From a phage, in sequence record PZ445521.1: 64,000 nt of DNA. One strand, given 5' to 3'. The translations under genes were made by a program, and so were the position numbers. Position 1 is the first letter of the stretch; the number at the start of each line of letters is the position of its first letter. Of the stretch, positions 32,935 through 39,981 are shown in pieces. The notes under the pieces were generated by a model that searched no databases, was not told the DNA's origin, and saw nothing but the letters and a program-made list of their open reading frames with translations.

Positions 32935-33116
32935 AAGGAATTTATATAATTAATAAGTTCTTGTTCTTTATTATCGAATTCTTTAGAAAGTTCTTCGTAC
33001 TCGTTTGCACTAAAAGGACCGCATTCATTACAAACTTTTTCCAATTCACTATTTTTATCCATAACTTCGTGGATAAGAGAAAAGAGTTTGTCTTTTTGTT
33101 CTTTGCTTAGGCTCAT
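32931..33116 (-). CDS. hypothetical protein
   Basis: 61 aa ORF. Confidence 0.35.
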   Translation of the reverse strand: MSLSKEQKDKLFSLIHEVMDKNSELEKVCNECGPFSANEYEELSKEFDNKEQELINYINSL

Positions 33117-33282
33117 ATATTAATTTCCAGAAGTTTTAAAATAATTCGCTTTTGCTTAAATATTTCCACAGTTAAATGATCAGTATCTTTTTGACCAATT
33201 CCAATGGCAAAACCTTTATTAACAGCGAGTTCAATTAAATTATCAAGTTCACGTAACACTTCATATTGTAACTCAGAACTAT

Positions 33283-33495
33283 TCATTTCGGTTTACCTTC
33301 TTTAACGAAATCTGGATAAGGATAAAATCCCGAATAAAATCCTTCACCTTTATGATTGATGCATCCTTTATTAGAACAATAGCACCAATAATCGAAATCA
33401 CAAACCATTTCATCGTTGCATAAAGCAAAAACAACCGGCCATTTACACTTTTCACAGTGGGCTTTTTTAAGAATACTAGTTTGGCTCATAACCAT
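33283..33495 (-). CDS. hypothetical Cys-rich protein
   Basis: 70 aa with 8 cysteines. Confidence 0.4.
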   Translation of the reverse strand: MVMSQTSILKKAHCEKCKWPVVFALCNDEMVCDFDYWCYCSNKGCINHKGEGFYSGFYPYPDFVKEGKPK

Positions 33496-33713
33496 GTCAC
33501 CTTTAAGCAGTATTCTTCTACATGCTGTTTACGACCTTTCTTATCAATAAAGGTATATTCAACGAATGTTCCAATGTAGTCTTTATCTACATCATGTGGA
33601 CTATTAATTGGACATTTAGTACGGCAAATGCGTTCCCATTGACGAATAATTACTGCCTTATTCTTTGGGTCATACGGATGTGGATAATGTATATTCATAA
33701 TAACGGTTCCCAA
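33486..33713 (-). CDS. hypothetical protein
   Basis: 75 aa ORF. Confidence 0.4.
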   Translation of the reverse strand: MGTVIMNIHYPHPYDPKNKAVIIRQWERICRTKCPINSPHDVDKDYIGTFVEYTFIDKKGRKQHVEEYCLKVTWL

Positions 33714-34162
33714 TCAACAATCACAATTTCTAATTTAGAGGAATATGTATCTAAAATCCCCTCAATAATATCCCAGTTCCCTTTACCTATGCCTGCTCCA
33801 ATCCTAGGCATATAAATTGTAGGTTTAATCAGTTTATTTTCACCAAACTCATTTAATTCTAACATACAATTCATTAAAGCGGAATACTCAAAATTTGGCC
33901 CTGGTTGAAATTGAGTATAAAGATTAAAGCAATACGCTTTATGAGTCCTAAAGTATTTTTCATAGACTGAGTAAGAACCGAGTTTAGTTACATCACCCCA
34001 TTCAGTCTGTAATTTATCAGCTTCCAAAATTTTAGGGAAAGCTTTGGTTAATTGACCTGCGACTCCAGCTTTCATCGCGTGAAAACAATTACATCCATGC
34101 GCAATATTTTTACCTTCAGCGAAAAGGGCGACAATATCGCCCTTGATATATTTTACAATCAT
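33695..34162 (-). CDS. macrodomain protein (TARG1/DarG-like ADP-ribose binding or hydrolase fold)
   Basis: 155 aa; IKGDIV...IAHGCNCFHAMKAGVAGQL and PRIGAGIGKGNW resemble the macrodomain diphosphate-binding loops. Confidence 0.55.
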   Translation of the reverse strand: MIVKYIKGDIVALFAEGKNIAHGCNCFHAMKAGVAGQLTKAFPKILEADKLQTEWGDVTKLGSYSVYEKYFRTHKAYCFNLYTQFQPGPNFEYSALMNCMLELNEFGENKLIKPTIYMPRIGAGIGKGNWDIIEGILDTYSSKLEIVIVDWEPLL

Positions 34163-34500
34163 CTAGTACTCAATCCTCGATTATAAGAATCTACCAAACG
34201 GTCAACCATTGAATGACAAGCGGCTTTATCTTTCTCCTCCGCAACTGAACATTCTAAGGTATTCCACTTTTTAGCATATCGTTTTAATAATGTATCATTT
34301 TTGTATCTGCTTGATTTATCTCTTTCTCCGTCTTTATATGCATATATTAATTTCTGCGCAAATTCAGCTTGGCATGCTTTATTTTTCCCGCAATAATCCG
34401 CTGCAGTACGGTTTACATACTCTCTAATTTCAGTATATGATGTATCTGCTAACGCAGAAAATGAAATTAATCCTATACATAAAACCAAAATTTTAGTCAT
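34159..34500 (-). CDS. secreted protein
   Basis: 113 aa with N-terminal signal peptide MTKILVLCIGLISFSALA. Confidence 0.5.
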   Translation of the reverse strand: MTKILVLCIGLISFSALADTSYTEIREYVNRTAADYCGKNKACQAEFAQKLIYAYKDGERDKSSRYKNDTLLKRYAKKWNTLECSVAEEKDKAACHSMVDRLVDSYNRGLSTR

Positions 34501-35038
34501 TTACTATTTCCAAAAGTTTATTATTTTTAAGGTAATTAGCCTTTTCTAGGACTTCAGAAGCATATTTAGAACCTGCTTTAACATTCCATCCCGAATTATA
34601 AGAGGATATTGCTTTTCTTATATCGCCCTTATGTATATTTAACCAATAAGAAAGTTCAATGTACGCCCAGGAAGCTGAATTGGACCGTTTATTCAACATT
34701 CTTTTTATTTCAGCATCGGTCATATTATAACCAAGTTCCTTAACTCTTGCTCGCATAGTAGGCAAATAATTTTGGAACATTCCGTAGGCGTGATGCTTTG
34801 GTTTAGATTTTAAATTAACTCCGCCAGAGCTTTCTTGCCATAAAATAGCAGCCATTATATGACCTAATCCGCTCTTGTGGATATTTTTGTGTGTTTTATA
34901 TTTTCCATCCTTAGAAAATTGTTCCCCGAATTGATACGCGTAACGCATGTTATCGAGTTGGACATTACTGAAAGTATGCTCGGAGCTATGTGCCATCATT
35001 GAAATGGCCAATAGACCAGCGAGTAGTGCTTTTCTCAT
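34493..35038 (-). CDS. secreted lytic-transglycosylase-like protein
   Basis: 181 aa; signal peptide; ILWQESSGG resembles SLT catalytic region. Confidence 0.5.
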   Translation of the reverse strand: MRKALLAGLLAISMMAHSSEHTFSNVQLDNMRYAYQFGEQFSKDGKYKTHKNIHKSGLGHIMAAILWQESSGGVNLKSKPKHHAYGMFQNYLPTMRARVKELGYNMTDAEIKRMLNKRSNSASWAYIELSYWLNIHKGDIRKAISSYNSGWNVKAGSKYASEVLEKANYLKNNKLLEIVND

Positions 35039-35045
35039 GCTTACC

Positions 35046-35507
35046 TCATTGAGTTTTAATTACTGCTTTAGAAGCCTTTCCTGGTAAACGACGACTGTTG
35101 ATAATTGCCATCCTACATTGAAGTGACGGGTCTTTGAACTTCTCGTTAGGTTTACAAACTGTAAATCCAAGCCAAAGATTTCCATCTGTGATTTCTAAAC
35201 GTCCAGGACGATATTCAACCCCATCAATAAAATCCTCGTCAATGTCAGGACGCGGAGGCATACTCAGGAATTCATTAACTTCTAAAACATGGTCTTTTAT
35301 TTTATGGAATAATTCAAAAACATATGTCTCATCAATCTCCCGTTGAATTGCACGATCAAGAAGATGTTGAGAATATTTTAGATGAAACGATGAGACCCCT
35401 GCTGCTTTTGATGCCTCACGAATCTCATTGTTAATTTGACGAAACTCCGACTCAAAGTGACGACGAAGCTTATTTCGACGGATAAAAACTTCAGTGTTGA
35501 TAGTCAT
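35046..35507 (-). CDS. regB: endoribonuclease RegB
   Basis: 153 aa, same length and position as T4 RegB. Confidence 0.88.
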   Translation of the reverse strand: MTINTEVFIRRNKLRRHFESEFRQINNEIREASKAAGVSSFHLKYSQHLLDRAIQREIDETYVFELFHKIKDHVLEVNEFLSMPPRPDIDEDFIDGVEYRPGRLEITDGNLWLGFTVCKPNEKFKDPSLQCRMAIINSRRLPGKASKAVIKTQ

Positions 35508-35529: not shown

Positions 35530-35570
35530 GAAAAATTATACCACAGTCAAGAGGAAAAGTAAACAGTTAT
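35530..35570 (-). promoter_or_regulatory. T4-type early promoter
   Basis: GTTTACT, 17 bp, TATAAT. Confidence 0.65.

Positions 35571-38993: not shown

Positions 38994-39962
<969 letters not shown>

Positions 39963-39981
<19 letters not shown>

Follow-up and report, generated by a model that had tools for sequence, protein, structure and literature searches.

The open reading frame at positions 33695..34162 on the minus strand of the phage DNA analysed here (64,000 nucleotides, the window) encodes a free-standing macrodomain of the ALC1-like class which, judging from sequence identity and gene order, is the Tequatrovirus ortholog of Tk.4 of phage T4. The feature is already known: T4 Tk.4, also named AdfM, is an orphan macrodomain that counters DarTG2. 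DarTG blocks phage replication through ADP-ribosylation of phage DNA, and the T-even phages possess layered counter-measures, with AdfA and AdfN acting against DarTG1 and Tk.4/AdfM against DarTG2. Family and profile alignments show that Tk.4 lacks the Lys/Asp catalytic residues and carries a Gln/Asn pair. Tk.4 is probably an orphan antitoxin that hydrolyses ADP-ribosyl-thymidine in DNA by a route similar to that of SCO6735 from Streptomyces coelicolor. The identity of Tk.4 as AdfM gives a function to the ORF in JK38-like phages and mends the misleading RefSeq label 'phosphatase'.

The tk.4 gene and its surroundings

The tk.4 (adfM) coding sequence starts with ATG and specifies 155 amino acids, as follows from the ORF listing and its translation, with support from the annotation of Shigella phage JK38, the identity to T4 and the AlphaFold2 model. 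An earlier note on this DNA, made from the letters alone, had described the 155-residue ORF and quoted GDIV and two further motifs from its product; all are present at exactly the given positions, GDIV comprising residues 8-11. An ATGA sequence at 34159..34162 (minus strand), read from the sequence and from the JK38 CDS coordinates, combines the stop codon of vs with the start codon of tk.4, and a second one at 33695-33698 (minus strand), read from the sequence, combines the stop codon of tk.4 with the start of the following ORF. As a consequence of these overlaps at both ends, tk.4 forms part of a compact co-directional gene block.

The 2.1 kb around the ORF show 100% identity to JK38 (MK962755.1, Tequatrovirus) and >98% identity to many T4-like coliphages. 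In JK38 the product of the ORF is named 'macro domain-containing protein' (QEG05960.1), and the gene is flanked by the valyl-tRNA synthetase modifier gene vs and small tk.x ORFs. The exact protein of the window is public both under this name for phage JK38 and as 'phosphatase [Shigella phage SH7]'. In T4 the same slot, between tk.3 and vs and syntenic with the window, is occupied by tk.4 (NP_049723.1; 'phosphatase; Tk.4; contains A1pp phosphatase motif' in RefSeq), the product of which has the same length and matches over its full length with 152 of 155 residues identical (98%); all residues conserved in the family are common to the two proteins. A match of tk.4 orthologs to the A1pp (macro) domain was reported by Nolan et al. 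2006 (PMC1524935). The question raised earlier, whether the T4 ORF had already been recognised as a macrodomain, thus has a positive answer in the T4 RefSeq entry, in that paper and in the GenBank record of JK38. For the T2 ortholog the protein product has been seen by proteomics.

A consensus scan located a candidate early promoter of the sigma-70 type at 35535..35563 on the minus strand (TTTACT-17-TATAAT plus an extended TG), ahead of regB. No other strong match to the consensus lies closer upstream of the regB-vs.1-vs-tk.4 run, and the site may serve as its promoter; in the same scan, sigma-70-type promoter-like sites were not enriched in the window over shuffled sequences. Matches to the MotA-box pattern of middle promoters (TGCTTNA, 10-14 nt, TANNNT) are more numerous in the window than expected (22 against 7.6), but there are none on either strand at 25.8-40.3 kb and thus none near tk.4. 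Since this pattern is absent near tk.4 and the sigma-70 scan performs no better than on shuffles, the timing of tk.4 expression can only be inferred. A terminator-like hairpin at 34124-34144 on the plus strand lies antisense within the tk.4 coding sequence and was judged to be a chance match.

Several other ORFs of this region deserve mention. Between tk.2 and tk.3 lie two small minus-strand ORFs, at 33113-33286 (57 aa, PHROG 3452) and at 33283-33495 (70 aa, PHROG 2306, with a Cys-rich pattern C-x2-C ... C-x-C ... C); T4, with only tk.1-tk.4 there, has no counterparts at that position. In the GenBank record of JK38, the label 'endoribonuclease RegB' is given to vs.1 (34493-35038 in the window, minus strand) and to further vs.x ORFs, among them the equivalents of vs.3, vs.7 and vs.8 (L001). 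The genuine regB gene is the ORF of 153 aa at 35046-35507, and vs.1 matches PHROG 600, of unknown function, together with weak matches to lytic-transglycosylase/endolysin-like proteins. The RegB labels on vs.1 and the other vs.x ORFs look like annotation carry-over errors.

Fold, class and active site of Tk.4

The product of tk.4 was proposed to be a macrodomain in the earlier note, and this assignment was borne out both by profile searches and by structure prediction. The Pfam profile Macro (PF01661), matched over positions 2-113 of its 118, gives 24.3 bits (E 3.2e-5) and thus exceeds its gathering score of 22, and PHROG 335 is matched at 3e-64. When the single sequence was compared to structures in the PDB, the matches were BT1257 from Bacteroides thetaiotaomicron (1.3e-8), yeast Poa1p (3.6e-5), SCO6735 (2.6e-3), human TARG1 (3e-3) and DarG (1e-2). 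A family profile built from 31 members retrieved the same proteins at 1.5e-19 (BT1257), 1.9e-16 (SCO6735), 3e-16 (TARG1), 4e-16 (Poa1p), 8e-14 (DarG from M. tuberculosis) and 1.3e-11 (DarG from T. aquaticus), the macrodomains of coronavirus nsp3 reaching only about 1e-3. The AlphaFold2 model, calculated with 51 homologues, has a mean pLDDT of 95.2 and a pTM of 0.90, and a Foldseek search with this model ranks TARG1 first (E 1e-9), together with Poa1p, BT1257 and DarG at the top. The protein shows the three-layer alpha/beta macro fold with two Gly-rich ADP-ribose-binding loops and consists of this one domain, its 155 residues leaving no additional domain. In sequence as well as in structure it is nearer to the ALC1-like class (TARG1/DarG/SCO6735/Poa1p) than to the MacroD-type, PARG-type and viral macrodomains.

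The putative active site was delineated with an alignment of 109 family members. The substrate-binding loop (HGCNC, including Asn25), directly followed by Gly-rich loop 1, comprises residues 20-38 (IAHGCNCFHAMKAGVAGQL; 34049..34105, minus strand), and loop 1 is assigned by alignment to contacts with the distal ribose and the phosphate. His22 is conserved in 106 of the 109 members, Gly23 and Asn25 each in 108, and Gly33 and Ala35 in all 109. Asn25 aligns with Asn27 of SCO6735, Asn22 of DarG and Asn23 of AdfM from phage PhiKZ (PMC9411070, PMC13309987). The stretch NLYTQFQPG (residues 80-88; 33899..33925, minus strand) places Gln84 at the position of the catalytic lysine, opposite K84 of TARG1, K80 of DarG and K78 of PhiKZ AdfM, as is evident from the family and profile alignments and from hhalign and phmmer comparisons. 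This glutamine is invariant (109/109), and its neighbours Asn80 (108/109), Tyr82 (108/109) and Thr83 (105/109) are nearly so. The second Gly-rich loop, which binds the diphosphate, comprises residues 119-130 (PRIGAGIGKGNW; 33773..33808, minus strand, from the family alignment), with Pro119 and Gly122 conserved in 108 members and Gly124 in 107. Here Gly126 is located opposite the catalytic Asp125 of TARG1 (within GCGLDRLQW) in the profile alignment; the family has Ala in 75 and Gly in 33 of the 109 members at this position, and never an acidic residue.

The likeness to TARG1 and DarG that had been suggested holds in so far as both are among the nearest solved relatives, but it does not extend to the catalytic Lys and Asp residues, which are absent. 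In its makeup the active site resembles that of SCO6735 more than those of TARG1 and DarG, and it is best described, from these alignments, as a Gln-type site combined with a loop of DarG/TARG1 length.

Comparison with the individual relatives illustrates this mixed character. Tk.4 is close to TARG1 (human OARD1, PDB entries 4J5R and 4J5S) in length, and both have a mobile loop that is short and P-R-I-G-x-G in loop 2; the sequence identity is about 20%, and the Lys84/Asp125 dyad of TARG1 is replaced by Gln84/Gly126. DarG, known from structures of the T. aquaticus (5M31, 5M3E) and M. tuberculosis (5M3I) proteins, uses the motif F-P-T-K with Lys80, as does PhiKZ gp104 with Lys78, whereas Tk.4 has L-Y-T-Q. 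Moreover, DarG possesses a second, C-terminal domain that binds DarT, and its gene lies beside darT; Tk.4 has neither, its gene neighbours being vs and tk.3. The DarG equivalog of NCBIfam (NF048014) scores 24.9 bits with Tk.4 against a cut-off of 250, and covers only positions 2-146 of the 338 in the profile. Membership of the DarG family was rejected in view of this score, the missing catalytic lysine and the domain architecture.

SCO6735 (5E3B) and BT1257 (2FG1, 2AFC) form a Gln-type subgroup of ALC1-like macrodomains, with which Tk.4 shares the glutamine and the conserved asparagine: NLYTQ aligns with NMIGQ and HGCN with HVCN. The identity is only about 25-29%, and other features of this subgroup, namely a mobile loop that exceeds those of DarG and TARG1 by five residues and bears Lys89 and Lys94, Val/Ile25 and Lys34, are missing from Tk.4. 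Relative to the Tk.4 profile, the mobile loop contains an insertion of six residues in BT1257 and of five in SCO6735, the loop of Tk.4 being shorter and devoid of lysines. Val25 of SCO6735 corresponds to Gly23 (108/109 members), and the DNA-binding Lys34 to position 32, which is Ser in T4 and Ala in the window. Since the long lysine-containing loop, Val25 and Lys34 are all absent, the mechanism of SCO6735 is not simply transferable to Tk.4. Poa1p (6LFQ-6LFU), an ADP-ribose-1''-phosphate phosphatase, has an H-G-C-N-C motif like that of Tk.4, but a serine at the position of Gln84; its role is that of a small-molecule phosphatase, with no tie to DNA ADP-ribosylation.

The Tk.4 proteins of the window and of T4 differ at three residues, T29A, G31K and S32A, all of which are located in loop 1, so that H-T-M-G-S-G in T4 reads H-A-M-K-A-G in the window. 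In the DNA alignment, 11 of the 18 nucleotide differences between the two genes, synonymous changes included, fall within a patch of 22 nt at 34058..34079 (minus strand; gene nt 84-105, codons 28-35), and none of 200,000 random placements in a simulation was clustered as tightly. The patch has the look of a short tract brought in by recombination, not of point mutation. Within Tequatrovirus, MKAG and MGSG coexist as circulating alleles, each in several phages, and among 15 distinct sequences that cluster at 90% identity the only balanced polymorphism is found at positions 31 (K/G, 5:10) and 32 (A/S, 6:9). In the alignments the counterparts of position 32 are the DNA-binding Lys34 in SCO6735 and, in DarG, the lysine of M-G-K-G. 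The window allele has a lysine at loop-1 position 31, where glycine is usual, and it is a matter of speculation that Lys31 could touch DNA. The JK38-type allele would presumably behave like that of T4.

Proposed mechanism and alternative functions

A protective role of Tk.4 in T4 is known from genetics. Deep et al. (PMC11257639) found that T4 lacking AdfA and AdfN is still resistant to DarTG2, from which a further anti-DarTG2 factor was inferred. In the HIDEN-SEQ preprint of November 2025 (10.1101/2025.11.20.689424), a screen of a T4 transposon library on a DarTG2 host gave tk.4 as the sole significant hit, and T4 with a clean knock-out of tk.4 was sensitive to DarTG2. Its authors noted structural similarity of Tk.4 to the M. 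tuberculosis DarG macrodomain, named the gene adfM (anti-DarT factor macrodomain) and wrote of an enzymatic release of ADP-ribose from DNA that it 'seems likely' (10.1101/2025.11.20.689424). The knock-out of this 98%-identical ortholog supports the first of the functions suggested earlier, reversal of the ADP-ribosylation of DNA thymidines by DarT. The literature search found no enzymology for Tk.4 of any phage.

Insight into the possible chemistry comes from SCO6735, which has no Lys/Asp residues and yet is active on thymidine-linked ADP-ribose, stripping it from DNA faster than DarG or TARG1, with specificity for dT-ADPr over dG-ADPr, and which saves cells from DarT (Hloušek-Kasun et al. 2022, PMC9411070). 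Of its mutants, Q85A and Q85E are inactive, N27S is nearly inactive and K34E is impaired on DNA; the mechanism proposed for it is water-mediated, with Gln85, held by Asn27, placing the distal ribose and the backbone of Val25 placing the water (PMC9411070). The authors argued that thymidine de-ADP-ribosylation is common to the whole ALC1-like class (PMC9411070). TARG1 also reverses thymidine ADP-ribosylation by DarT (PMC8501950).

In the mechanism proposed, Tk.4 would be expressed from the regB-vs-tk transcription unit soon after infection and would bind the ADP-ribose put by the host toxin DarT2 on thymidines of single-stranded phage DNA. Cleavage of the bond between ribose and thymine would then yield free ADP-ribose and replicable DNA. 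The chemistry would follow the SCO6735 route rather than the lysine route of DarG and TARG1: the distal ribose would be placed by Gln84, itself held by Asn25, and the diphosphate gripped by the two Gly-rich loops (30-36 and 119-130), with hydrolysis by an activated water molecule. The hydrolase activity, the substrate and the early expression are all inferred.

Inactive variants of SCO6735 (Q85A), DarG (K80A) and TARG1 (K84A) all inhibit DarT on DNA in vitro, that of SCO6735 most strongly (PMC9411070), and hence the DarTG2 phenotype of tk.4 is no proof of hydrolysis. Tk.4 might instead block DarT2 mainly in a non-catalytic manner, termed 'interaction-inhibition', by binding the toxin or by shielding the modified site or the NAD+/ADP-ribose pocket, which would be consistent with the lack of the canonical catalytic lysine and with the purely genetic nature of the T4 evidence. 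This explanation seems improbable to us. The residues that SCO6735 employs for hydrolysis (the Gln, the Asn and both Gly loops) are near-invariant in 109 diverse members of the family, and such conservation would be more natural for an active site than for a surface that binds one particular toxin. The phages that carry the family infect many hosts, and its members would encounter divergent DarT proteins. In addition, Tk.4 has no equivalent of the C-terminal DarT-binding domain of DarG.

Other alternatives concern the substrate. Tk.4 could reverse the ADP-ribosylation of protein or RNA, set either by host defence transferases or by the phage enzymes Alt, ModA and ModB, or degrade ADP-ribose-derived signals such as those of Thoeris, its effect on DarTG2 being only one facet. 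SCO6735 and TARG1 indeed also cleave Glu/Asp-linked protein ADP-ribose, comparative genomics suggests soluble derivatives of ADP-ribose as possible targets of many macrodomains in phages (PMC9503650), and distant Tk.4 homologues in Vibrio phages adjoin a gene for ribose-phosphate pyrophosphokinase. However, DarG-type enzymes are DNA-specific and DarTG2 sensitivity is the sole phenotype reported for tk.4, which makes such a broader role very unlikely; a trial of tk.4 on Thoeris was not found in the literature. T4 Alt, ModA and ModB produce arginine-linked ADP-ribose, and we know of no macrodomain that cleaves this linkage; reversal of the phage's own marks is unlikely for this reason. The database names 'phosphatase' and 'O-acetyl-ADP-ribose deacetylase' suggest a hydrolase of small ADP-ribose derivatives, comparable to the Poa1p/A1pp-like Appr-1''-p phosphatases or to the deacetylases, that clears by-products of RNA repair or of sirtuins. 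These names stem from the historical name of the domain and not from assays; Poa1p has a Ser where Tk.4 has an invariant Gln, and a function of this kind, which we hold to be extremely improbable, leaves the DarTG2 phenotype of the T4 knock-out unexplained. ADP-ribose-1''-phosphate originates from Tpt1/KptA 2'-phosphotransferase reactions, and to our knowledge none is made in the Rnl1/Pnkp repair pathway of T4.

Distribution of the family and the two AdfM proteins

Homologues of Tk.4 were found by tblastn in 2816 of 50,697 phage records, and the hosts of the phages concerned include Escherichia, Klebsiella, Salmonella, Pseudomonas, Vibrio, Acinetobacter and Aeromonas. Unlike SCO6735 and BT1257, Tk.4 is encoded by a phage, and the family is apparently restricted to phages so far. 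P0053 and P0076, two members that carry the label of bacterial MAG proteins, are located on T4-like phage contigs, together with RNA ligase 1 (Rnl1), a Dda-like helicase, Pnkp and dCMP deaminase, and no DarT gene is present near them on those two contigs. A bacterial origin of the family or a linkage to DarT was rejected on these grounds, there being no sign of a cellular toxin-antitoxin ancestor. On a T4-like phage contig binned as a Bacilli MAG (L014; features 41-343 and 1927-2397), the gene for the macrodomain has a DUF4326 gene about 1.6 kb upstream of it. The idea of an 'anti-DarT island' in this contig, with DUF4326 as a relative of AdfN (gp30.3), was discarded: T4 gp30.3 belongs to the Pfam family Phage_30_3 and not to DUF4326, and it does not align with the DUF4326 protein (E 0.19). 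In the Vibrio phages Cody and Bennett (H45 and H46), distant homologues with about 34% identity to Tk.4 lie beside the ribose-phosphate pyrophosphokinase gene, a neighbourhood that hints at a link to ADP-ribose/NAD salvage, instead of or besides an anti-DarT role.

The name AdfM was coined independently for T4 Tk.4 (10.1101/2025.11.20.689424) and for gp104 of PhiKZ, a macrodomain that has been validated biochemically as reversing the action of DarT2 (PMC13309987, Cell Rep 2026). To compare the two, the gp104 protein was translated from the sequence given in PMC13309987. Lys78 of gp104 is found opposite Gln84 of Tk.4 by hhalign, and phmmer aligns the F-P-T-K motif of gp104 with that of DarG. 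In the PDB, gp104 matches DarG structures only (9e-25 to 9e-18), and with Tk.4 it gives a marginal BLASTP E of 0.019. The two AdfM proteins therefore come from different subfamilies, gp104 being a Lys-type derivative of DarG and Tk.4 a Gln-type protein; they are remote homologues and functional analogues, not orthologs. This split, with Gln in T4 and Lys in PhiKZ, goes slightly past the literature found. It bears on nomenclature, on the design of mutants (Q84A/N25A, and not a Lys mutant) and on the prediction of anti-DarTG2 activity among the ~2,800 phage homologues.

A more far-reaching and tentative reading, which we regard as possible rather than probable, is that Tk.4-type proteins represent a third, phage-specific flavour of thymidine-ADP-ribose DNA glycohydrolase, combining an SCO6735-like Gln/Asn centre with a DarG/TARG1-like short loop and a Poa1p-like H-G-C-N-C motif, and evolved independently of the DarG-derived AdfM of PhiKZ. 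The loop-1 alleles would then constitute an arms-race polymorphism that tunes the enzyme to variants of DarT2 or to glucosyl-hydroxymethylcytosine as opposed to unmodified DNA. T4 DNA carries glucosyl-hydroxymethylcytosine, and the target site of DarT2 is TNTC.

Elsewhere in the window, a 151-aa ORF at 39526-39981 (minus strand) adjoins the lysozyme gene e and contains a Nudix box (G-R-V-E-N-S-...-R-E-C-L-E-E-T-G-F). We take it to be the counterpart of T4 e.1/NudE, which hydrolyses ADP-ribose; as Tk.4 is expected to release this same compound, NudE and Tk.4 might be connected in function, though this is only a thought.
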